From sequence record PZ171035.1: a DNA stretch of 64,000 nucleotides. One strand, 5' to 3'. This stretch comes from a phage. Positions 1 through 9,173 of this stretch are shown piece by piece (positions within the stretch are counted from its first letter, which is position 1; every line of letters starts with the position of its first letter). The position numbers and the translations under genes are program-made. The notes below the pieces were generated by a model, which saw nothing but the letters and a program-made list of their open reading frames with translations, was not told the DNA's origin and did no database searches.

Positions 1-86
1 CCACTACCCTACCCCACCTTACACGTTACACATGCTCCGCATGTTATGGACATGTCGTCCTATCATCAACTATTGGAGCTATCATC

Positions 87-410
87 ATGACTACTCAAGC
101 TACTGTACGTATGACCGCAGGAACTTTACTTGGTACTGTTAACTCAGCTGCTACTACTGTTGCAGATACATTCAGCACAGCAACTAAAGCTGTAGGTATG
201 CTTAATTCATATGTAAGTACTATGGCAGAGAAACAAGCCATCCGTACTAAATTAGAAATGCATACCTTTGTTAATAAACTGGCAGAGGAAACAGCTATGA
301 CTGAGACTCTGCGTAAGAAAAGTATTGAGGAATTCTGCAAAGATTCAGAGAACGCTCGTATCTATAACGCAGAATATTCCAAAGTAATTGACATCCTGAC
401 TAAAGACTAA
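87..410 (+). CDS. hypothetical early protein
   Basis: 107-aa ORF, first gene after a non-coding leader, followed by a hairpin + T-run terminator; no recognisable motif. Confidence 0.45.
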   Translation: MTTQATVRMTAGTLLGTVNSAATTVADTFSTATKAVGMLNSYVSTMAEKQAIRTKLEMHTFVNKLAEETAMTETLRKKSIEEFCKDSENARIYNAEYSKVIDILTKD

Positions 411-418
411 GTCATCAA

Positions 419-445
419 GGAGACTCTTCGGAGTCTCCTGTTTTG
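419..445 (+). terminator. intrinsic terminator
   Basis: GGAGACTC-TTCG-GAGTCTCC hairpin followed by TGTTTTG. Confidence 0.6.
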
Positions 446-498
446 AACATTAGATAGATAGTCAAAAGTAGATAGTTATCTACTTTAGGAGAAGTAAA

Positions 499-684
499 AT
501 GTCCCTGACAGAATGCAAATCAGATAGTCCTCAAGAAGCTCTAGAAAGATTTGAAGCTGCTGTAGATGCTGTAAGCAATTACCAATCAGACATACTTAAC
601 TATGGTGACTCAGACAAATCATTCGATGAAGTTTACTCAGAGTATAAATCTGCTAAGGCAGAATTACTTAAACGTTTGTCTTAA
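499..684 (+). CDS. hypothetical small acidic protein
   Basis: 61-aa ORF with GGAG-type RBS upstream (aggagaagtaaaATG). Confidence 0.4.
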   Translation: MSLTECKSDSPQEALERFEAAVDAVSNYQSDILNYGDSDKSFDEVYSEYKSAKAELLKRLS

Positions 685-839
685 AAACCAAGACCGCAGG
701 CGTTGTCTGCAAGACAGCGACGCTCCGCGTCTTATGGATGATGTAAATGCATCCACTAATCATTGAACTTTTATCCTTTTGTTTGGGTGTTCTCACCGAC
801 GAGTTCACCCGTAAATCACATAAATCTGGAGAGTACAAA

Positions 840-1220
840 ATGTCTATTCAAAAATTCACTTTCGGTCAATCTAACACTGCTGCTTCTACTGCTAAAGCTG
901 ATAAACCAAAAGCTCAGTTCTGGCTGAACATTGGTTATGTGGCTAATGAAGGCTCTGATGATGAGAAATTCATCTCACTGCCTACTGGTATTCCATTGGA
1001 TACTCAGGAACCGCTGCCTACTAACAGCAGCAATGCTGACTTCCGTGCTATGCGTTGTGCACAGAACGATTTGCTGGAACAGTTAATCGAATATGCTCAG
1101 AACCTGGAACCAGGTGAAGAGGGTATCATTAACCTGCAAGTTCAACTTCGTCGTGTGAAAGCAGAGGCTGCTGACATCCCAGCAGACGAGAATAAATATG
1201 CTCGTAAACTGACTTTCTAA
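840..1220 (+). CDS. hypothetical protein
   Basis: ORF track starts at 747, but the internal ATG at 840 is preceded by GGAGAG RBS; followed by a terminator hairpin. Confidence 0.45.
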
Positions 1221-1229
1221 TCAACCAAT

Positions 1230-1258
1230 AGACTCCCTTCAGGGAGTCTTTTATTTTT
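1230..1258 (+). terminator. intrinsic terminator
   Basis: AGACTCCC-TTCA-GGGAGTCT hairpin followed by TTTATTTTT. Confidence 0.6.
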
Positions 1259-1363
1259 AACTAGACGATAAGCTATTTCTACTTTTTGAGTATCTTTAGA
1301 CGAAGGGTACTGAAACAGTAACCAGATAGATATAGATTTATATTAGATGAAGGAGTAACCATT

Positions 1364-1660
1364 ATGCGTACAATTTGTAACCGTTATAACTCACAGAAGT
1401 TGATTGAAATGTTACAACCTTGGGGTAGTAAGATGGCACTGAATGCACGTTGGCAGGTATCTGTAGAAGGTGCAAATGGTCAGTGTTATGACCACTTCTT
1501 TGTAGCTAAGCCTACTCGTAAACAAATCCGTAAACTCCATAAAGTACGTAAGCATTACTTACTAAGCAAATGCTACGAATGCGGAAAAAGGATAGAACTG
1601 GGTAAAGAATTTACCTGGGATGGCTTAAACTATGCACACACTGACTGCCTGAAAGGATAA
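1364..1660 (+). CDS. hypothetical protein with C-terminal CxxC...HxxC cluster
   Basis: 98-aa ORF, RBS aggagt upstream, Cys/His cluster CYECGKR...HTDC. Confidence 0.45.
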   Translation: MRTICNRYNSQKLIEMLQPWGSKMALNARWQVSVEGANGQCYDHFFVAKPTRKQIRKLHKVRKHYLLSKCYECGKRIELGKEFTWDGLNYAHTDCLKG

Positions 1661-1664
1661 GACT

Positions 1665-1883
1665 ATGTTGGACTTCATTGCGTTTGTAATACTCTGTTAT
1701 GTGCTGTATCGCCTGCGTGGTTACATTCTCAATGGAGCCAAGTGGGTAAGAACTAAGCTGGTACTTATCTGTAAGTTACCAGTTGTATTCGTTAAGTGTC
1801 TGTTTGCTTCCATAGTAGCTAAAGAAGTTCGTAAGCAACTCTGGGCTAAAGAAGCAGAAGAGTTTGCAAAGAGGAACCAGTGA
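1665..1883 (+). CDS. hypothetical small membrane protein
   Basis: 72-aa ORF with hydrophobic N-terminus, tightly packed after the upstream gene. Confidence 0.35.
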   Translation: MLDFIAFVILCYVLYRLRGYILNGAKWVRTKLVLICKLPVVFVKCLFASIVAKEVRKQLWAKEAEEFAKRNQ

Positions 1884-2045
1884 TATTCACTAACATTGAG
1901 GATGCCATTGAAGAATGTATCTTCCGTAGATATCACACTGGAGTACAGAAAAGACACTATGGTGTTGTACAGCTCAATGGCTATCAAATGGCTGTAAGAA
2001 TTGTACGTAACAATAAACCTTTTAACTTTATGTGGAGTACTAAAC

Positions 2046-2228
2046 ATGCGTAAGTCATTAATCATGGGAACCAGAGAAGATGTGTCACGTTTACGTAATC
2101 GTAATGCAGCAAGCAAACGGGCACTCAGCATGACCAATGAACAACTGAAAGAATTCATTGATTCAGGACTTAAGCAAAGTAAAGCTCGTATCGTAACCTT
2201 TAATCACCCTGCAATCTTAGGAGAATAA
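2046..2228 (+). CDS. hypothetical protein
   Basis: ORF 2001-2228; internal ATG at 2046 chosen; weak RBS. Confidence 0.3.
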   Translation: MRKSLIMGTREDVSRLRNRNAASKRALSMTNEQLKEFIDSGLKQSKARIVTFNHPAILGE

Positions 2229-2229
2229 A

Positions 2230-2445
2230 ATGTATTTCACTATCTTAATCACCTTAACCTACTTAAGCGTATGGCTTACCTCAGAAGCAGCTAATATCAC
2301 TAAAATGTTTCGTATTAAAGGAGATGTCAGGGGATTTGCTGTATTCGGGTATGTCACTGTACTAAGTAAGGGAGCCAGTGTTGGATATGTAATATGGTAC
2401 ATTTGGTACTGCTTCGGTGATTTACTTACGAATCTGTTCAAATGA
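2230..2445 (+). CDS. hypothetical small membrane protein
   Basis: 71-aa ORF, two hydrophobic segments, RBS aggagaa upstream. Confidence 0.35.
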   Translation: MYFTILITLTYLSVWLTSEAANITKMFRIKGDVRGFAVFGYVTVLSKGASVGYVIWYIWYCFGDLLTNLFK

Positions 2446-2505
2446 ACTGGCCTATCTCAATAATCATGCTTGCACTGTTAACCTATGGTGCATTAGTAGA
2501 ACTGG

Positions 2506-2538
2506 GAGTCCTCCATTAGGGGGACTTCTATTTTTTAT
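2506..2538 (+). terminator. intrinsic terminator (imperfect stem)
   Basis: GAGTCC...GGGACTTC hairpin followed by TATTTTTTATTT. Confidence 0.4.
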
Positions 2539-2565
2539 TTAGATAAATAGACTCAGGAGATAACC

Positions 2566-2784
2566 ATGCAACAAGAACATATCGAATCATTAGAGTATAT
2601 GTGCCGTATGTACGGTGTTTATGAAGTAGCTAAAACAATAAAGAATTATGCTAAGAAAACCAGTAAAGAGTATAAGAAAGCTGGTAATGAAGGTGCAATA
2701 ATCCACCAGGATGCTGAAATCTTAGATACTGCATGCAATGCAATGGCTATTGCCCATCCACTAAGGAGTAAAGATGTTAAATGA
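2566..2784 (+). CDS. hypothetical protein
   Basis: 72-aa ORF with RBS caggaga upstream. Confidence 0.4.
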   Translation: MQQEHIESLEYMCRMYGVYEVAKTIKNYAKKTSKEYKKAGNEGAIIHQDAEILDTACNAMAIAHPLRSKDVK

Positions 2785-3085
2785 AATTGTTTGTATACTT
2801 CCTCATTCAGCTAAGATAGCTGACCGGAATATACGTATACACTTACCATTCCCATTAAGCAATCCATTCACTCGTAATGAAAGAACCACAGTAGAAGATG
2901 TAGAGGTGGCATATGAGGCTTATCTTCGTAATCGTCTTATTAGTGGTGACAAGTTAATTACAGCAGAGATGGAAAGGATTGCATCCTTTGTAACAGATAG
3001 TACAGGTAAGCCTGTTGGCTTAATTGGTACTGAATCTGATGTTAACGTTATTCGTAAAATATTAATGGAGGCTTTAAGCCAATGA
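2774..3085 (+). CDS. hypothetical protein
   Basis: 103-aa ORF overlapping the upstream stop (coupled translation pattern). Confidence 0.4.
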   Translation: MLNEIVCILPHSAKIADRNIRIHLPFPLSNPFTRNERTTVEDVEVAYEAYLRNRLISGDKLITAEMERIASFVTDSTGKPVGLIGTESDVNVIRKILMEALSQ

Positions 3086-3303
3086 TGTACAGCACTAATT
3101 ATGGTATTTGCCCGATTTGCAATAAAGGAAGAGGAGTTGCTAATCATAAGAAGTGTAGTCGTATCCTACAGAAACGACGGAACCAGAAAGAATGGGATAA
3201 GATATTGGAAAATCAACACAAAGATGAGTTCAAGAAAACAGCTGTTAAAGCGTCTACTCAGCTCATTCGTCGTACTAACTTCATAGAAGGTTATCAGAAA
3301 TGA
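3082..3303 (+). CDS. hypothetical zinc-ribbon protein
   Basis: 73-aa ORF with CPIC...C motif, ATGA overlap with upstream gene. Confidence 0.4.
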   Translation: MMYSTNYGICPICNKGRGVANHKKCSRILQKRRNQKEWDKILENQHKDEFKKTAVKASTQLIRRTNFIEGYQK

Positions 3304-3554
3304 TTATTACTTATCCTACAGGCAAGAACGTGGAATATATGGGGCATACCATCCAAGTACCTCATTGGGTTAAGTACATAGCATTACTACCTCGTCAATA
3401 TAAGAGTGCTAATACCTCATTAATAGGATTCTCTAAGAAACCTAAGCTAACAGAAAACAATATCTGGGTATCCTATGGGAGACAAGAAGAGATTGGTTTC
3501 TGTGATTTGAGTATTGTCGATAATAACATCTATGGGACATTGAGAAAGGTATGA
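3300..3554 (+). CDS. hypothetical protein
   Basis: 84-aa ORF, overlapping start/stop with neighbours. Confidence 0.4.
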   Translation: MIITYPTGKNVEYMGHTIQVPHWVKYIALLPRQYKSANTSLIGFSKKPKLTENNIWVSYGRQEEIGFCDLSIVDNNIYGTLRKV

Positions 3555-3865
3555 AAACTATTCTAGTAGTTCATGACGCTACATTTACCGATGTAGATAA
3601 GATGATGCGTAATATTGATTATGTATCTCAGACAAGCCAAGCATTCAATGAAGAGTTTACTCTGTACTGTAATGCTGAATCTCCACTGGTTCCTATTCTT
3701 AAGGAATCAGGACTACCATTCTCTACAGAGAACTTCCCGGAAGAACCAGACTATGTAATTTCATTTATCTATGACTTACATGATGGTTCTGAAACTAGTG
3801 AATTAGCTATGAACCAGTGGCGTAGTAAACGTCCTGTATTCCCATTCCAGGTACTTAAACCATGA
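3551..3865 (+). CDS. hypothetical protein
   Basis: 104-aa ORF, overlapping start/stop with neighbours. Confidence 0.4.
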   Translation: MKTILVVHDATFTDVDKMMRNIDYVSQTSQAFNEEFTLYCNAESPLVPILKESGLPFSTENFPEEPDYVISFIYDLHDGSETSELAMNQWRSKRPVFPFQVLKP

Positions 3866-4242
3866 AGATTATGTCATTAGGTGACGATACCAATGCTTTA
3901 CTTGGTGTATCTGCACGTCCAATTATTATTGTTAATAAACATCGTGGTAAATCCGGTGAGTATATTGGACGTGGTTCACCGTTAGGCAATCCATTTGTCA
4001 TTGGTAAACATGGAACCAGAGAGCAAGTAATTGCTAAGTATAAAGTCTGGTTACAAGAACAGATTGATAAAGGTAATCCAGTTGTATTGGATGAACTTAA
4101 TCGTCTGGGTAATAAAGCCATTGATGAGAAAGGGCTAGCCTTACAATGCTTCTGTTATCCGAAACCGTGTCATGGTGAGGTTATTAAAGAGAAGCTAGTG
4201 AAAGCTATGTATAACTATTTTGTGGAGAATCCTAATGGATAA
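3862..4242 (+). CDS. DUF4326-family protein
   Basis: 126 aa; recalled DUF4326 signature IGRGSPLGNPF ... GTREQVI ... CYPKPCHGEV. Confidence 0.6.
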   Translation: MKIMSLGDDTNALLGVSARPIIIVNKHRGKSGEYIGRGSPLGNPFVIGKHGTREQVIAKYKVWLQEQIDKGNPVVLDELNRLGNKAIDEKGLALQCFCYPKPCHGEVIKEKLVKAMYNYFVENPNG

Positions 4243-4420
4243 GCAATGCAAATGTGGTAAAGGCCATGTATCCCAATGGGATGGTAAATGTGGTCATTGC
4301 CGAACCAAGAAAGAACAGCGTGACCATGAATATGCTCTTACTTACTTAGAAGTAACTCGTAAATACAACAATATGACCACACACGATGCTTATACTTACA
4401 ACAGAGAGGCATGTAAATGA
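4235..4420 (+). CDS. hypothetical Cys-rich small protein
   Basis: ORF 4220-4420; ATG at 4235 preceded by GGAGA; CKCGKGH...CGHC cluster. Confidence 0.35.
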   Translation: MDKQCKCGKGHVSQWDGKCGHCRTKKEQRDHEYALTYLEVTRKYNNMTTHDAYTYNREACK

Positions 4421-4797
4421 AAGAAATCTTAGTATTCGGAAGTAATTTAGCAGGCCGTCATGGTGCTGGTGCAGCAAAAGTTGCATATAAGAAGCATGGT
4501 GCTCGTTGGGGTATGGGCGTAGGCCATTATGGTTGCAGCTATGCAATCCCAACCAAAGACCAGAACATCAAATCTATGAAACTGGATGACATCAAAGTAT
4601 TCGTAGATGCTTTCATCCTATACGCAGCATCACACCCAGAGTGGGACTTTAAAGTAACACGCATTGGTTGTGGTTTAGCTGGATATAAGGATGAAGAAAT
4701 TGCTCCTATGTTTGCCAATGCTACAGGCAATGTCATGTTTGACGAAGCCTGGAAGCCTATTCTGGGAAATGATTATATCTACTGGGGAACCTTCTAA
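4417..4797 (+). CDS. macro-domain-like protein (TARG1/OARD1-type, putative ADP-ribose binding/hydrolase)
   Basis: 126 aa; glycine-rich motif FGSNLAGRHGAGAA and RIGCGLAGY resemble the two diphosphate-binding loops of TARG1-like macrodomains (recalled, not searched). Confidence 0.5.
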   Translation: MKEILVFGSNLAGRHGAGAAKVAYKKHGARWGMGVGHYGCSYAIPTKDQNIKSMKLDDIKVFVDAFILYAASHPEWDFKVTRIGCGLAGYKDEEIAPMFANATGNVMFDEAWKPILGNDYIYWGTF

Positions 4798-5057
4798 TGA
4801 CATATGAAGAACTATGGGCTGCTCAGGTCAGAGCCAGAGCACTCACACGGCATGACATCTATTGTGCATTACAGAACGAATTAAAGGGACGTACTAAGCT
4901 AGGTCACATATCAGGTTTCATTAAAATACCTATGCGTAGTCTAGTATGGCCTTATAAAGAAAAAAGTAATGAATTTAGCGGTAATGGTTTATATGTACGT
5001 ATCAACTACCTTGGTCAAGAGAACAATATTCGTATTGCCTTTTGGACTAAGCGTTAG
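4797..5057 (+). CDS. hypothetical protein
   Basis: 86-aa ORF, ATGA overlap with upstream gene, terminator hairpin downstream. Confidence 0.4.
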   Translation: MTYEELWAAQVRARALTRHDIYCALQNELKGRTKLGHISGFIKIPMRSLVWPYKEKSNEFSGNGLYVRINYLGQENNIRIAFWTKR

Positions 5058-5062
5058 GTAAT

Positions 5063-5084
5063 AGCTGCTCCGCAGCTTTTGGTT
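5063..5084 (+). terminator. intrinsic terminator
   Basis: AGCTGC-TCC-GCAGCT hairpin followed by TTTGGTT. Confidence 0.5.
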
Positions 5085-5110
5085 ATTAATAACATTTAGG
5101 AGAATATGCG

Positions 5111-5929
5111 ATGTACTCATCTATTGAACATCAGAAGCAGCTTGAAGTCCTTTTTAACAAAAACCAATTACTGCCTCGCATGAGGAAGGAATTCGAGGAC
5201 TCCAAAGAAATTGACTTTAAGGCATTCGCTGCCTATTTAGAAATTGATTATAAGCTGCTCATTGATGCAATGGTGCAGATTGCCCTACATAAACGTGCTG
5301 ACATCCAGACTATGATTGGCTCTCTCATGAGTCACTCAGATGATGCTCAGTACATCGCTGACTGTCTGTATAAGATGGCAGAGAATGACTGCTTCAACTA
5401 TGACCCTACCATCGACAAGTTCGGTGTTATCTATGAGATTAGTGAAGATGTTCAGATGGAACTGGAAGCATTCCAGTATCCATTACCAATCGTCAGTAAA
5501 CCTAAGCCTGTCCTGACTAACCGGGACACTGGTTACTATGAGTCTAAAGGCTCAATCATCCTCAAGAAGAACCATCATGAGATGGACGTCTGCCTTGACC
5601 ACATTAACCGCATGAACAACCAACGTCTCTGTATTAACTGGGACGTTGCTAACTATGTAAAAGACTCTCGTCCTAACATGGATAAACCCAAAGAGGGTGA
5701 AACCCGTCAGGATTATGAGAAACGTGTTAAAGCCTTTGAGAAGTACAGTCGTACTGCTAAGGAAGTAATGGAGTTAGTAACCAAAGAGGGCAATAACTTC
5801 TCGCTAGCGCATAAGTATGACAAGAGGGGCAGAACCTATGCCTGTGGATACCACATTAACTATGCGGGGACTTCATATAACAAGGCAGTGATTGAATTTG
5901 CAGATAAAGAACTAGTAAACGAGGATTAG
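5111..5929 (+). CDS. RNA polymerase II small subunit (N4 gp15-like, N-terminal part of a split T7-like RNAP)
   Basis: 272 aa, immediately upstream of the catalytic subunit; size and order match the N4 heterodimeric RNAP II; RBS aggagaa. Confidence 0.6.
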   Translation: MYSSIEHQKQLEVLFNKNQLLPRMRKEFEDSKEIDFKAFAAYLEIDYKLLIDAMVQIALHKRADIQTMIGSLMSHSDDAQYIADCLYKMAENDCFNYDPTIDKFGVIYEISEDVQMELEAFQYPLPIVSKPKPVLTNRDTGYYESKGSIILKKNHHEMDVCLDHINRMNNQRLCINWDVANYVKDSRPNMDKPKEGETRQDYEKRVKAFEKYSRTAKEVMELVTKEGNNFSLAHKYDKRGRTYACGYHINYAGTSYNKAVIEFADKELVNED

Positions 5930-5930
5930 T

Positions 5931-6512
5931 ATGAAGACATGTTCAGTATGTAAGAAGAACTTGCCTCTGGACATGTTCAATAAACAGTCCACTGGCAAAC
6001 AGGGTGTTAGGGCAGACTGTAAAGACTGCCTTAAACGCTTTATCCGTTCAAAACACGGAGTCATTAATCAGATGTACTCCGGTTGTATCAGTAGAACCAA
6101 GAAGAAGGGATTTACTTCCGTATCCTTCACTAGGGAGGAGCTAGAGAAATGGGTATATTCATGCAAAGAATTTCACACATTGTATGACAAGTGGGTATTG
6201 GAAGATTATCCAACTGCCTTGAAACCTAGCTTAGACAGACTGGATGATTACAAAGGTTATTCCCTGGATAACATTCGTATTGTTACAGCCAATACCAACG
6301 TAAAGAGGTACTACTCTGATGCAATCAACGGCATCAATACTAAATCAGCTAAGCCCGTTGAGCAGTACTCGCTAGATGGTGAATACATTAGGACATTCCA
6401 TTCACTTAGTGCTGCTGCACGAAGTGTTAATGGTATACCTTCTAATATTAATCAAGTAATTAATGGTACGTATGCGCAAGCATATGGCTATAAGTGGAAA
6501 CTAGGAGCCTAA
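5931..6512 (+). CDS. homing endonuclease-like protein (degenerate HNH-like core with NUMOD-like C-terminal DNA-binding motif)
   Basis: 193 aa; N-terminal CxxC...CxxC, LDRLDDYKGYSLDNIRIV HNH-like segment (His replaced by Arg), C-terminal ...SAAARSVNGIPSNINQVINGTYAQAYGYKWK typical of free-standing HEG DNA-binding tails. Confidence 0.5.
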   Translation: MKTCSVCKKNLPLDMFNKQSTGKQGVRADCKDCLKRFIRSKHGVINQMYSGCISRTKKKGFTSVSFTREELEKWVYSCKEFHTLYDKWVLEDYPTALKPSLDRLDDYKGYSLDNIRIVTANTNVKRYYSDAINGINTKSAKPVEQYSLDGEYIRTFHSLSAAARSVNGIPSNINQVINGTYAQAYGYKWKLGA

Positions 6513-6513
6513 G

Positions 6514-7731
6514 ATGCAGATTTTCACAGCTAAAGAATATTTAAAAATTGATATTGCCAATTCTTACGGGCTGGATAAGAAGACATGGGATGAACGTATT
6601 AGCTGGTTCGATGAGAACGAAGCTAACCTGCTTAATCTGGTAGATGAAGCAGAAGAATCCGCACTGTTCTATGCAGGTGTAAACGCATGGAAAGATATGA
6701 AAGCCGGTAAGCCTATCGGTTATGCCGTAGCTCTGGATGCTACATCATCAGGCTTACAGTTACTGGCTTGCCTGACTGGTGACCGTTCTGCTGCTGAACT
6801 GTGTAACGTAGTTAACTACATGGGCGAGAATGGTAAGCCATTACGTCGTGATGCTTATACAGTTATCTATCACAAGATGCTGGACATCCTTGGTGAAGCA
6901 TCACGTATTAAACGTAGTGACACTAAGCAAGCAGTTATGACTGCATTCTACGGTTCAGAAGCCAAACCTAAAGAAGTATTCGGTGAGGGTATCCGTCTCA
7001 AGACTTTTGAGAATGTAATGGAAACGGTTGCTAGTGGTCCTTGGGCATTGAACAAGTTCTTACTGCAATGTGGTAACCCGGATGCTAACCGTTACGTATG
7101 GGTACTGCCTGACAACTTCCATGCTGTCATTAAGGTCATGGTTCCAGAGGTACAGACTGTTAACTTCTTAGGAAAACCATTCGACATCACTCGTATGGTT
7201 CAGGGTACTGAAGAGAAGACTCGTATGCTCTCTGCTAATATCACTCACTCTATTGATGGGATGGTGGTACGTGAGATGCTGCGTCGTTGTAACTTCAACA
7301 TGAACCAGGTGAGCTATGTTAAGTCACTTTGTGAAGGAACCTGTGATTACATGGTAGGTACTAGTGAGAATTACGACATGGTTAGCCAACTGTGGCATAG
7401 CTATGAGAAATCAGGTTTCCTGTCTACCCGCATCTTTGATTATCTGGATTCCGACTCAGTTAAACTGGTTGATACAGATGTAGTGCTGGCTATGCTGAAC
7501 ACTCTGCCTAAGAAATCATTCCCTGTAATGACCGTACATGACTGCTTCCGTTGCCATCCTAACTATGGCAATGACCTGCGTCGTCAGTACAATCAGATTC
7601 TGTCTGACATTGCTAAGAGTGACCTACTGGGCTTCATTCTGTCTCAGGTACTGGGGCAAGAGTTCTCTGCTGGTAAGCTGGATGACAGCCTCTGGCAGGA
7701 CATTCTCGAAACAGACTATGCATTAAGTTAA
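6514..7731 (+). CDS. RNA polymerase II large/catalytic subunit (N4 gp16-like, T7-like single-subunit RNAP C-terminal part)
   Basis: 405 aa; T7 RNAP-like motifs ALDATSSGLQLLA (cf. DGSCSGIQH) and VHDCFRCHP (cf. HDSFG motif C). Confidence 0.8.
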   Translation: MQIFTAKEYLKIDIANSYGLDKKTWDERISWFDENEANLLNLVDEAEESALFYAGVNAWKDMKAGKPIGYAVALDATSSGLQLLACLTGDRSAAELCNVVNYMGENGKPLRRDAYTVIYHKMLDILGEASRIKRSDTKQAVMTAFYGSEAKPKEVFGEGIRLKTFENVMETVASGPWALNKFLLQCGNPDANRYVWVLPDNFHAVIKVMVPEVQTVNFLGKPFDITRMVQGTEEKTRMLSANITHSIDGMVVREMLRRCNFNMNQVSYVKSLCEGTCDYMVGTSENYDMVSQLWHSYEKSGFLSTRIFDYLDSDSVKLVDTDVVLAMLNTLPKKSFPVMTVHDCFRCHPNYGNDLRRQYNQILSDIAKSDLLGFILSQVLGQEFSAGKLDDSLWQDILETDYALS

Positions 7732-7761
7732 TAAACTAGCCTCATTCCTTCGGGAGTGAGG
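7729..7761 (+). terminator. intrinsic terminator after RNAP II operon
   Basis: GCCTCATTCC-TTCG-GGAGTGAGGC hairpin followed by CTATTTTTTG. Confidence 0.65.
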
Positions 7762-7971
7762 CCTATTTTTTGCTTGGAGGTAATAACTATGCTAATCCTT
7801 TTTGAAGTAATCTTTCAGCTAATACTGATAGTTTTATCTGTACTAGTTCTGACTACGATAGTCCGTGCCCACAAATCTAAGTTTGCTTATTACTACTACG
7901 GAGCATACTCACTAGGCTGCTTTGTAATAGCAGGATGGATAGCTTTTGCTATCTACTGTGTAAACAACTAA
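7756..7971 (+). CDS. hypothetical membrane protein
   Basis: 71 aa, two predicted TM helices, RBS ggagg upstream. Confidence 0.4.
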   Translation: MRPIFCLEVITMLILFEVIFQLILIVLSVLVLTTIVRAHKSKFAYYYYGAYSLGCFVIAGWIAFAIYCVNN

Positions 7972-7999
7972 CCCTCTTAACGGAGGGTTTATTTTTTTA
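7972..7999 (+). terminator. intrinsic terminator
   Basis: CCCTC-TTAAC-GGAGGG hairpin followed by TTTATTTTTTT. Confidence 0.6.
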
Positions 8000-8045
8000 T
8001 CTGTCATGTATACTAACTCTGCTATTTACTTATGAGGAAATTGAT

Positions 8046-8276
8046 ATGCCAACTTTAAAAGTAGGTTTTAACAAAACCACTAATGTTGCAACTGTACTGG
8101 ATGCCAGTGGCTCTATCCCAGGTGGTTCCGTAGAAGTAGGAACCTTTGTACATCCAGATGCCACTTATCCAGATAGCTTAGTTATTTTTCATGGTGTTCG
8201 TGACCTGCTGTATAAACGTTCTGCTAAAGACCCAAGTAAAGCAGGCTTCTGGCCTAACAACATCGTGGATATGTAG
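8046..8276 (+). CDS. hypothetical protein
   Basis: ORF 7935-8276; ATG at 8046 with aggaaa RBS, downstream of terminator at about 7972-7999. Confidence 0.35.
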   Translation: MPTLKVGFNKTTNVATVLDASGSIPGGSVEVGTFVHPDATYPDSLVIFHGVRDLLYKRSAKDPSKAGFWPNNIVDM

Positions 8277-8291
8277 TCTATCTCTATTGAT

Positions 8292-8879
8292 ATGAAAGCT
8301 ACTCCACGACTGACTATTGCTACCAAACTGTCTCGTGTAGTCTCTGCTATCGAAGGTGAAGACATTAACTGGCATGTTGATGTAGCAGGTGGTAAAGCAC
8401 CATTTACTTATAAATGGCAATTCAAAGCTAATACTGCTGGTGCAGCATTCGCTGATATTAGCTCCAGTACTAACCCATCTGCTGCTACTGCAACATTGAC
8501 CCTTAATAATGTAACAGCTGCTTCTGCTGGCACTTATAAGGTGATTGTTACTGATGCTAATGGAACCACTGTAGAAGATACGTCTTTGCTGGCTGTAGGC
8601 TACTACGAAGCAAGTTCACTGGTAGCTACTCCTGCTTCACTGGCTCTGTCTGTTGCTGCTGATACTACTGATGGCAAGAGCGTAACAATTGCTGCTATGC
8701 CTGTTGGTTCTTCTGCTGGTGCTTTATCTATCAAGACTGCTCCAGATTCTGCTCGTGCTACGGCTACCATTGCTGGTAATGTACTTACAGTTAAGCCAGT
8801 AGCTGCTGGTAATGCTACTTCTGTAGTAGTTACCAACGGTACGGTCGATGTAACCATCGCCATTACTGTTGCAGAATAA
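8292..8879 (+). CDS. Ig-like (Big-type) domain protein
   Basis: 195 aa, Thr/Ala/Val-rich beta-strand pattern ...FTYKWQFK...AGTYKVIVTDANGTTV... typical of bacterial Ig-like domains. Confidence 0.4.
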   Translation: MKATPRLTIATKLSRVVSAIEGEDINWHVDVAGGKAPFTYKWQFKANTAGAAFADISSSTNPSAATATLTLNNVTAASAGTYKVIVTDANGTTVEDTSLLAVGYYEASSLVATPASLALSVAADTTDGKSVTIAAMPVGSSAGALSIKTAPDSARATATIAGNVLTVKPVAAGNATSVVVTNGTVDVTIAITVAE

Positions 8880-8929
8880 GAGTATCCTTTGTTTGGGGTT
8901 ATAAACCCCAATATGAAACTCCCAAGTTT

Positions 8930-8960
8930 GACCTCCCCATCGAAGGGAGGTCTTTTTTTG
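8930..8960 (+). terminator. intrinsic terminator (GACCTCC-type family)
   Basis: GACCTCCC-CATCGAA-GGGAGGTC hairpin followed by TTTTTTTGGTTT. Confidence 0.65.
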
Positions 8961-8984
8961 GTTTAAACATCCTGGAGCCAGAAA

Positions 8985-9173
8985 ATGTATAAAGAGATTG
9001 CATTTTTCTCATTCTTACTGGGTGGTTTAATAGGTGCAGGATTTGTAGCTATTTCCAATACCTACTTTGGTTCTACTCCAAACTCTGTAACACAAACTCT
9101 CAAGCATGAATGTGAATTAAATATCCCTCGTAATCAAAACTGTGTAATGCAGTTCGTACCGGAGAAGAAATGA
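8985..9173 (+). CDS. hypothetical small membrane protein
   Basis: 62 aa, hydrophobic N-terminus. Confidence 0.35.
   Translation: MYKEIAFFSFLLGGLIGAGFVAISNTYFGSTPNSVTQTLKHECELNIPRNQNCVMQFVPEKK

Follow-up and report, generated by a model that had tools for sequence, protein, structure and literature searches.

The gene at positions 4417 to 4797 (plus strand) of the window, by which we mean the whole 64,000-nucleotide stretch of phage record PZ171035.1 that we analyzed, encodes a 126-residue protein whose structure model identifies it as a macrodomain, an unusually compact one of the DarG/TARG1/Poa1p-like clade. Judged by position and identity, this gene and the two open reading frames (ORFs) that precede it on the same strand, at 3862 to 4242 and 4235 to 4420, are orthologues of phage N4 gp14, gp12, and gp13, respectively, and we use the N4 names for them. 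We tentatively favor a reading in which gp14 would be an orphan ADP-ribosyl hydrolase of the DarG-like type, produced as infection begins, and would most likely clear DarT2-type ADP-ribose from phage single-stranded DNA (ssDNA). A first-pass annotation had described three overlapping early ORFs here, encoding a DUF4326 protein, a small Cys-rich protein, and a macrodomain, and had proposed the first and the last as a counter-defense pair. All three ORFs are present, and they are real genes: more than 8000 database proteins match gp14, its relatives occur in 459 of 50,697 phage records, and DUF4326 occurs in 1377 phage records.

Fold and active site of gp14

The gp14 protein contains GSNLAGRHGAGAA and RIGCGLAGY, is 72% identical to N4 gp14, and matches the NCBIfam entry "A1S_2505 family phage non-structural protein" (model A1S_2505_Nterm) at E=4.4e-47. 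Source names among its database matches include "Macro domain_Poa1p family," "ADP-ribosylglycohydrolase," "O-acetyl-ADP-ribose deacetylase 1," and "N4 gp14-like protein." Single-sequence searches of the PDB with gp14 returned nothing meaningful, and a sub-threshold match to 5-FTHF cyclo-ligase (E=0.02) was dismissed as noise; by sequence, its macrodomain homology is detectable only when profile is compared with profile. Gene neighborhoods and alleles were read from 80 IMG/VR loci encoding gp14 relatives, or from 83 loci when two GenBank relatives and the window are counted. One homologue, gene 55 of Rhodobacter phage RcBigEagle (Casjensviridae; L083, 3001 to 3369), is annotated as an "ADP-ribosyltransferase," which looks like a mislabeled macrodomain; a DprA-like (SLOG) gene lies ~3 kb upstream of it.

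An AlphaFold (AF2) model of gp14, built with 30 diverse homologues, reached a predicted local distance difference test score (pLDDT) of 92.8 and a predicted template modeling score (pTM) of 0.87, and it shows the three-layer alpha/beta/alpha fold with a central mixed beta-sheet that defines macrodomains. When the model was compared with the PDB by Foldseek, BT1257 (2fg1), TARG1, and DarG came out on top (E ~4e-4; template modeling scores, 0.60 to 0.67), and the first 37 matches were all macrodomains or designed proteins with a macrodomain-like scaffold, where counting the OSH55 entries as such designs is our own reading. The TARG1/OARD1-like macrodomain call, which the first-pass annotation had made from motifs alone, is thus upheld by the fold searches and by a profile alignment that keeps the catalytic-type lysine.

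The key elements of gp14 are loop 1 (N10-LAGRH-G16-A-G18), Lys47 within a PTK motif, and loop 2 (G84-C-G86-L-A-G89). Both glycine-rich loops, which correspond to the ADP-ribose/diphosphate-binding patterns N-x5/6-G-x-G and G-x-G, align to the loops of DarG, AdfM, and TARG1. In an hhalign comparison of the gp14 profile with a joint DarG/AdfM/TARG1 profile (E=4.3e-6 over 100 columns), N10 paired with the DarG Asn, G16 and G18 with the G-x-G, K47 with the DarG Lys, and GCGLAG with GAGNGG. Against phiKZ gp104 (AdfM) on its own, hhalign gave a misaligned match with a probability of 2.7%, but the motifs pair in MAFFT as well as in the joint profile, and gp14 K47 shares a MAFFT column with phiKZ AdfM K78 and TARG1 K84. 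Alignment of the gp14 family profile to the C-terminal 60 residues of TARG1 likewise set K47 on K84 and placed G-C-G-L-A88 on G-C-G-L-D125. For these comparisons the TARG1 sequence was checked against PDB 2lgr, the DarG sequences came from PDB alignments, and phiKZ AdfM came from the genome record. Across 30 diverse homologues from phages of many hosts, N10, G13, G18, P45, T46, and G84-C-G86 are invariant, as is the GCG.AG motif, while K47 and G16 are kept in at least 90%.

The published active-site residues are N22/K80 in DarG2 (Thermus aquaticus numbering) and N23/K78 in AdfM (PMC13309987). Because N10 and K47 align with this pair, gp14 appears to have a DarG2/AdfM-type active-site configuration, with an Asn and a Lys and without the Asp of TARG1. 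Although K47 matches Lys84 of TARG1/OARD1 (human C6orf130), the position of the catalytic TARG1 Asp125 is occupied by Ala88, which is invariant in the gp14 family; BT1257 (RIGCGLAGG) also has Ala there. TARG1 in turn has a Ser where gp14 and DarG have the Asn, according to a manual motif alignment of a region that MAFFT misaligned. Yeast Poa1p belongs to the same Poa1p-like macrodomain clade as TARG1 and BT1257. With the Asp missing, gp14 is, by its sequence, not a TARG1 orthologue.

Phages are known to carry enzymes of the kind that we propose. AdfM, a phage macrodomain, uses its Asn/Lys pair to strip DarT2 ADP-ribose from DNA (PMC13309987), and the NADAR protein AdfN strips DarT1 ADP-ribose from DNA (PMC11825919). 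AdfN follows the same logic of a phage-borne orphan antitoxin-type ADP-ribosylglycohydrolase, although its NADAR fold is unlike a macrodomain and its specificity is for guanine-ADPr. NADAR genes do occur in the same early neighborhood of some N4-like contigs, but a search of the window for SLOG and NADAR genes found none. Whereas AdfM is imported into the phage nucleus, gp14 would be an early cytoplasmic product.

In the mechanism that we envisage, transcription by the injected virion RNA polymerase (vRNAP) would yield gp14 in the first minutes of infection. The two glycine-rich loops of gp14 would hold the ADP-ribose moiety, and Lys47 would serve to split ADP-ribose off macromolecular adducts. 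The likeliest substrate of gp14 would be thymidine-ADP-ribose that DarT2-like toxins have attached to phage ssDNA, and removal of these adducts would keep transcription and replication running. N4 early transcription uses hairpin promoters of extruded ssDNA (PMC13434306), so early damage to ssDNA would be a plausible vulnerability of this phage.

Natural alleles and candidate substrates of gp14

The gp14 gene exists in three states among the coliphage relatives. The intact allele is found in the window, PhAPEC5, Uz-1, and N4, and proteins at least 80% identical to that of the window occur in 19 records. The second allele carries K47L together with G16I or G16V (P0017 and P0024; L007, L009, and L011 at about 4001 to 4385). 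The third encodes a protein of 116 amino acids that is 51% identical and occurs in ~35 Gamaleyavirus-type records, including Mimir124 (L002, 3511 to 3861), IME11, St11Ph5, and 24-32N (L001, 4191 to 4541); in it G8, S9, G16, A17, and G18 are substituted and R-I-G-C-G-L-A-G-Y is deleted, so that both ADP-ribose loops are lost, yet the ORF itself is conserved at 90 to 100% among those records. Phages with decayed gp14 alleles keep an intact gp12. Catalysis by gp14 is therefore probably dispensable in these phages, and gp12 probably acts independently of it, a pattern more in line with an accessory, conflict-driven role than with an essential one, and one that argues against a strict two-enzyme pathway. 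Behind the degenerate alleles there could be relaxed selection, an arms race, or the adoption of a noncatalytic role.

Several observations weigh against a DarG-like, DNA-directed hydrolase. The persistence of intact ORFs in sister phages despite K47L/G16[IV] or destroyed ADP-ribose loops is one of them. The similarity to DarG is also remote: identity to DarG2 (T. aquaticus and Mycobacterium tuberculosis) and AdfM is ~19%, the joint-profile hhalign probability was only 87%, Pfam gave gp14 no match at E<=0.1 to a Macro family (PF01661 or its relatives), and PADLOC, DarG models included, gave no match to gp14, gp13, gp12, or the gp9-like protein described below. The protein is 25 to 35 residues shorter than DarG2 and AdfM, chiefly because it lacks the ~20 to 25 residues (a beta-hairpin by sequence) that these carry between loop 1 and PTK, and the missing segment could matter for DNA binding. 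Unlike DarTG2, gp14 consists of a single domain and has neither a DarT-binding domain nor an adjacent DarT toxin gene, and it is not a DarG. In our view its spread among N4-like phages (459 records) is untypical of accessory anti-defense genes. The linkage of gp14 to gp12, which is found mostly within Schitoviridae early regions, may be due to shared ancestry. Finally, Iyer et al. (PMC9503650) argue that the targets of Macro domains in phages are mostly soluble ADP-ribose derivatives, and the recurring SLOG neighbors of gp14 fit that view.

The last point underlies the main rival explanation, in which the substrates of gp14 would be low-molecular-weight ADP-ribose derivatives and not DNA adducts, and gp14 would act either by itself or together with gp12 and with the SLOG/NADAR proteins that related phages carry. 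The candidate substrates are Thoeris-type signals (gcADPR and His-ADPR), ADP-ribose-1''-phosphate, ADPr>P, and O-acyl-ADP-ribose; the distal ribose would be the site of cleavage by gp14, and DUF4326 would take off a terminal phosphate. This agrees with what has been predicted in print for the Macro and DUF4326 domains of phages (PMC9503650) and with the fusion of DUF4326 to nucleotide-binding SLOG domains, and N4-like phages are rich in anti-signaling genes. Those genes are found at another locus, however: the anti-signaling hotspot of N4-like phages (Bes1/Bes2 and Acb4-Sequestin), which we set aside as irrelevant here, sits between the primase-polymerase and vRNAP genes, and the known anti-Thoeris proteins, as described in the paper on these genes, are sponges unrelated to macrodomains. 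The Asn and Lys of gp14, with no Asp, are moreover closer to DarG/AdfM than to TARG1, and the phosphatase chemistry of DUF4326 is itself a prediction for a domain whose model is poor and finds no fold match. We regard action on soluble derivatives as a serious but rather unlikely alternative.

It is less probable that gp14 reverses the ADP-ribosylation of protein or RNA, whether imposed by the host (for example, CmdT-like mRNA ADP-ribosylation) or belonging to a phage take-over program, as part of a conserved core role. Such a role would suit the wide spread of gp14 across N4-like phages of many hosts and its place immediately upstream of the RNAPII genes (described below), and TARG1 and viral macrodomains, which are protein de-ADP-ribosylases, are among the fold matches. 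An "N4-like" ADP-ribosyltransferase (ART) family has also been reported in phages by Iyer et al., though its location was not found. Nevertheless, the invariant Ala of the gp14 family stands where TARG1 has its catalytic Asp125; no ART gene turned up in positions 1 to 9000, the part of the window that was screened, or in the annotations of relatives; the "ADP-ribosyltransferase" of the Rhodobacter phage is a gp14 homologue itself; and the lineages with degenerate alleles are viable isolates, which speaks against an essential core function.

gp12, gp13, and the DUF4326 network

The gp12 protein (126 amino acids) scores 78.8 bits against Pfam DUF4326 (PF14216; E=5.1e-22; gathering cut-off, 25), matches phrog_464 at E=1.4e-39, and is 95% identical to N4 gp12. 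By sequence it is an ordinary, unambiguous member of its family, as the first-pass annotation had it. The family is large, with 5565 representative clusters at E<=0.001 in a whole-library search. Among 60 diverse representatives, R37, R53, L94, C96, C98, P100, and C103 (gp12 numbering) are invariant and H104 is nearly so; gp12 carries R37, R53, and the full C-x-C-x-P-x-x-C-H motif (C96, C98, P100, C103, and H104).

Structural confirmation, which had been called for on both proteins, was obtained for the macrodomain fold and not for DUF4326. The gp12 model was poor (pLDDT, 63; built with homologues of at least 76% identity, close relatives among the best 120 matches) and gave no fold match, and a search for a PDB relative with the profile of the 60 diverse representatives found none. 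The literature assigns DUF4326 to the rhodanese-phosphatase superfamily, with a Rossmannoid fold in which the active-site Cys loop joins a strand to a helix, and it has been predicted to remove terminal phosphates from the ribose of ADP-ribose derivatives (PMC9503650). A strand-loop-helix predicted around the Cys motif and weak Pfam cross-matches to DUF488-N3a do not contradict this assignment, and they are compatible with it without being evidence for it.

The small Cys-rich protein that had been noted between the two is likewise genuine. gp13 (61 amino acids) matches phrog_13804 over 61 of 61 positions (E=1.6e-32) and is a four-cysteine, zinc-ribbon-like protein with the motif CxC-x10-CxxC. 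The ORF finder listed it from a TTG at 4220; the product from the ATG at 4235 matches phrog_13804 over its full length, and we prefer this start, the TTG being probably not the true one. As a stand-alone gene gp13 was found in only nine of the 80 IMG/VR loci, all close Enquatrovirinae-like relatives (L003 to L011, N4 included). In a 75-kb N4-like contig (L046, 1978 to 2433), however, the gp13-type CxC...CxxC motif forms the N terminus of a 151-residue DUF4326 protein (pairwise E=7e-11). This Rosetta-stone fusion suggests that gp13 and gp12 act together and is the sole direct hint of such cooperation; gp13 would then probably work with gp12.

The pairing of gp12 with gp14 proved looser than the first-pass annotation had supposed. 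A DUF4326 gene lies within 4 kb of gp14, always upstream and on the same strand, in 20 of the 80 IMG/VR loci: nine close relatives and 11 of the 71 more distant loci. Most of these loci are in contigs of ~70 to 78 kb, the N4-like range, and none of the jumbo-phage loci among the 80 has a DUF4326 gene near its gp14 homologue. The macrodomain is intact with no DUF4326 within 4 kb in 55 of the 83 loci, and DUF4326 is intact beside a motif-less macrodomain in four. The linkage is far above an estimated background of ~0.2% per 8 kb, itself a rough figure, but it is nonobligate and phylogenetically clustered.

One may therefore ask whether the juxtaposition is simply historical, with gp12 serving nucleotide or DNA metabolism apart from ADP-ribose and gp14 an unrelated neighbor in a packed early operon, perhaps a noncatalytic ADP-ribose binder. 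The largely different distributions of the two families (1377 versus 459 records), the 55 loci without a nearby DUF4326, the intact gp12 beside decayed gp14, and the fact that all nine ORFs of the surrounding block overlap whatever their family would all suit this explanation. In large phages (e.g., phiM7, PsgM04F, SD2, phiKp_18, and Kosakonia phage 305), DUF4326 genes are often labeled "NrdA-like" and lie beside nrdB/thymidylate synthase, hinting at a nucleotide-metabolism context unlike the N4-like early region. Yet DUF4326 has been joined to NADAR, to SLOG, and to canonical Macro domains in independent fusions, it is found near 11 of the 71 distant gp14 loci against the low estimated background, and the high conservation of catalytic-type residues in gp14 speaks for an enzyme. 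We consider mere historical proximity unlikely.

The fusions deserve particular attention. Of 26 multidomain DUF4326 representatives, seven carry YAcAr SLOG, three NADAR, two DprA-like, one YpsA, and one canonical Macro domains. Some lie close to gp14 itself: a NADAR+DUF4326 fusion is found ~1 kb upstream of gp14 in an N4-like contig (L023, 2062 to 2934), and DUF4326+DprA-like SLOG fusions are found a few kilobases upstream of it in two others (L012, 1739 to 2695; L022, 8 to 871). Other N4-like contigs have stand-alone YAcAr SLOG genes upstream of gp14 (e.g., L011, 2496 to 2852). Iyer, Burroughs, and Aravind described in 2021 and 2022 how DUF4326 is associated with Macro, NADAR, and SLOG domains, and they predicted a counter-defense role (PMC7824862 and PMC9503650). 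gp12 is a clear member of their network, and we recovered the same NADAR, SLOG, and Macro fusions independently. The link of DUF4326 to ADP-ribose biology that had been proposed from the window is thus corroborated, and domain architecture offers independent support for a functional tie. The window differs from the published fusions in that its gp12 stands alone and is followed by a separate zinc-ribbon-like gene. We propose that gp12 may be a separate member of the NAD+/ADP-ribose counter-defense network, an enzyme built on its Cys/His motif, rather than an obligate partner of gp14.

A more elaborate scheme, which we offer as speculation with little expectation that it is correct, would unite the three proteins in an early DNA de-ADP-ribosylation and clean-up module. 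In it gp14 would clear thymidine-ADP-ribose, and gp12 and gp13, as a complex, would catalyze a new Cys-dependent reaction on phospho-ribosyl products that are linked to nucleic acid or have been released. The arrangement would suit N4-like biology, in which early transcription needs extruded ssDNA hairpin promoters, just the sort of ssDNA on which DarT toxins act. The repeated decay of gp14 in coliphages (K47L; loop deletions) would then be the trace of a continuing arms race, or of gp14 turning from an enzyme into a decoy or sponge.

A second DUF4326-like gene lies upstream at 2774 to 3085 (plus strand). Its 103-residue product matches phrog_464 at E=1.5e-16 and a local jackhmmer DUF4326 profile at E=2e-31, falls below the Pfam DUF4326 threshold (16.7 bits; E=0.012), and lacks the GRGS and C-x-C-x-P-x-x-C-H motifs according to an alignment and a motif census; it is probably noncatalytic. 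The degenerate paralogue suspected here in the first-pass annotation is therefore real, but it does not stem from a recent duplication: it corresponds to N4 gp9, and a gp9-like paralogue is present in every Enquatrovirinae-like locus examined. Since it is common to the subfamily, the duplication is old.

The early block and its significance

Positions 2500 to 6000 of the window match 79 phage records by megablast, from Escherichia, Shigella, and Klebsiella phages of ~72 kb (best identity, ~91%). Some of these records bear the name Gamaleyavirus (Schitoviridae, N4-like) or are classified there. The start of the window is close to the left end of the genome, and its ORFs at 87 to 410 and 747 to 1220 take the positions of N4 gp1 and gp2. 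The left ends of the window, N4, 24-32N, and Mimir124 share a layout of small plus-strand ORFs followed by two subunits of the early-encoded RNA polymerase II (RNAPII), with gp12, gp13, and gp14 in the same order upstream of the RNAPII genes in N4, Mimir124, and 24-32N. The gp9, gp12, gp13, and gp14 genes of N4 have the same order, strand, and position directly upstream of gp15/gp16 as those of the window, and RNAPII genes lie just downstream of gp14 in about half of the 80 IMG/VR loci. N4 gp1, gp2, gp15, and gp16 are early genes transcribed by vRNAP (PMC13434306). Because the gp12-gp14 block lies on the same strand between the gp2-like and the gp15/gp16-like (RNAPII) genes, synteny indicates that it is early as well, in keeping with the early-gene label that the block had been given.

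All four genes belong to nine abutting or overlapping plus-strand ORFs at 2566 to 5057. The gp12 ORF ends in ATGGATAA, where the ATG of gp13 at 4235 overlaps the gp12 stop; gp14 starts in an ATGA overlap with the gp13 stop and ends in a TAATG overlap with the ORF at 4797 to 5057, its neighbors being the gp13-like ORF and a phrog_14487 ORF. In a scan for terminator-like elements, the upstream boundary of the block coincided with a 12-bp-stem hairpin followed by a T-run at 2503 to 2530 (plus strand; a consensus match only), and the downstream boundary, just before the RNAP1-subunit gene, coincided with a hairpin (6-bp stem, 3-nt loop) followed by Ts at 5063 to 5077 (plus strand). The latter resembles N4 vRNAP hairpin promoters in shape and is a candidate terminator or vRNAP promoter. 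Over positions 1 to 8000, terminator-like hairpins are commoner than expected (16 versus 4.5) and sigma-70-like sites are rarer (8 versus 21), a depletion that fits transcription by phage polymerases.

Other features of the region are noted here. An ORF of 193 amino acids at 5931 to 6512 (plus strand) matches NUMOD1 (Pfam E=8e-8) and lies between the RNAP1-subunit gene at 5111 to 5929 and the RNA polymerase gene at 6514 to 7731 (PF00940). Mimir124 has an HNH endonuclease at this spot, whereas N4 has no gene between gp15 and gp16, and the gap between the RNAPII subunit genes looks like an insertion hotspot for homing endonucleases. The early ORF at 1364 to 1660 (plus strand; 98 amino acids) encodes a conserved protein that matches Pfam DUF7279 (E=3.5e-9). 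The N4 gp11-like ORF at 3551 to 3865 (plus strand; phrog_7827) can be aligned over its whole length with YAcAr SLOG proteins from related phages and has a similar hydrophobic pattern (MKxIxxxxDxxFTDVD...); it may be a decayed SLOG domain, but we did not adopt this reading, as the hhalign comparison was nonsignificant (E=0.05; probability, 1%). No tRNAs were found in positions 1 to 9000.

The N4 ORFs, the DUF4326/Macro context, and the counter-defense prediction are already known, and some database entries carry macrodomain-type names. The first-pass description of the pair as uncharacterized holds for experiment, since no published experiments on gp12 to gp14 and no fitness or essentiality data for the N4 genes were found in the literature searched, but not for prediction, as both the association and the predicted role are in print (PMC7824862 and PMC9503650). 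N4 gp14 is listed as "Unknown" (PMC2784036), and the papers and annotations examined assign no function to N4 gp12, gp13, or gp14, so orthology to N4 provides names rather than mechanism. The mapping of the DarG/AdfM catalytic pair on N4 gp14, the three allele states, and the gp13-DUF4326 fusion were not found in the papers searched.

Should the gp12-gp14 proteins prove to hydrolyze soluble ADP-ribose derivatives, this would merely confirm existing computational predictions. If gp14 instead clears DarT2-type adducts from DNA, the newly described AdfM class would reach beyond the nucleus-forming jumbo phages. With N4 a classic model phage, gp14 becomes a directly testable anti-DarT candidate, for which the natural alleles (intact, K47L, and loop-deleted) are ready-made controls. 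The stand-alone gp12, with its possible partner gp13, provides a tractable entry to a widespread domain of unassigned chemistry. The hypothesis covers a gene found in hundreds of Schitoviridae, including therapeutic-candidate phages of Escherichia coli, Klebsiella, Pseudomonas, and Achromobacter.

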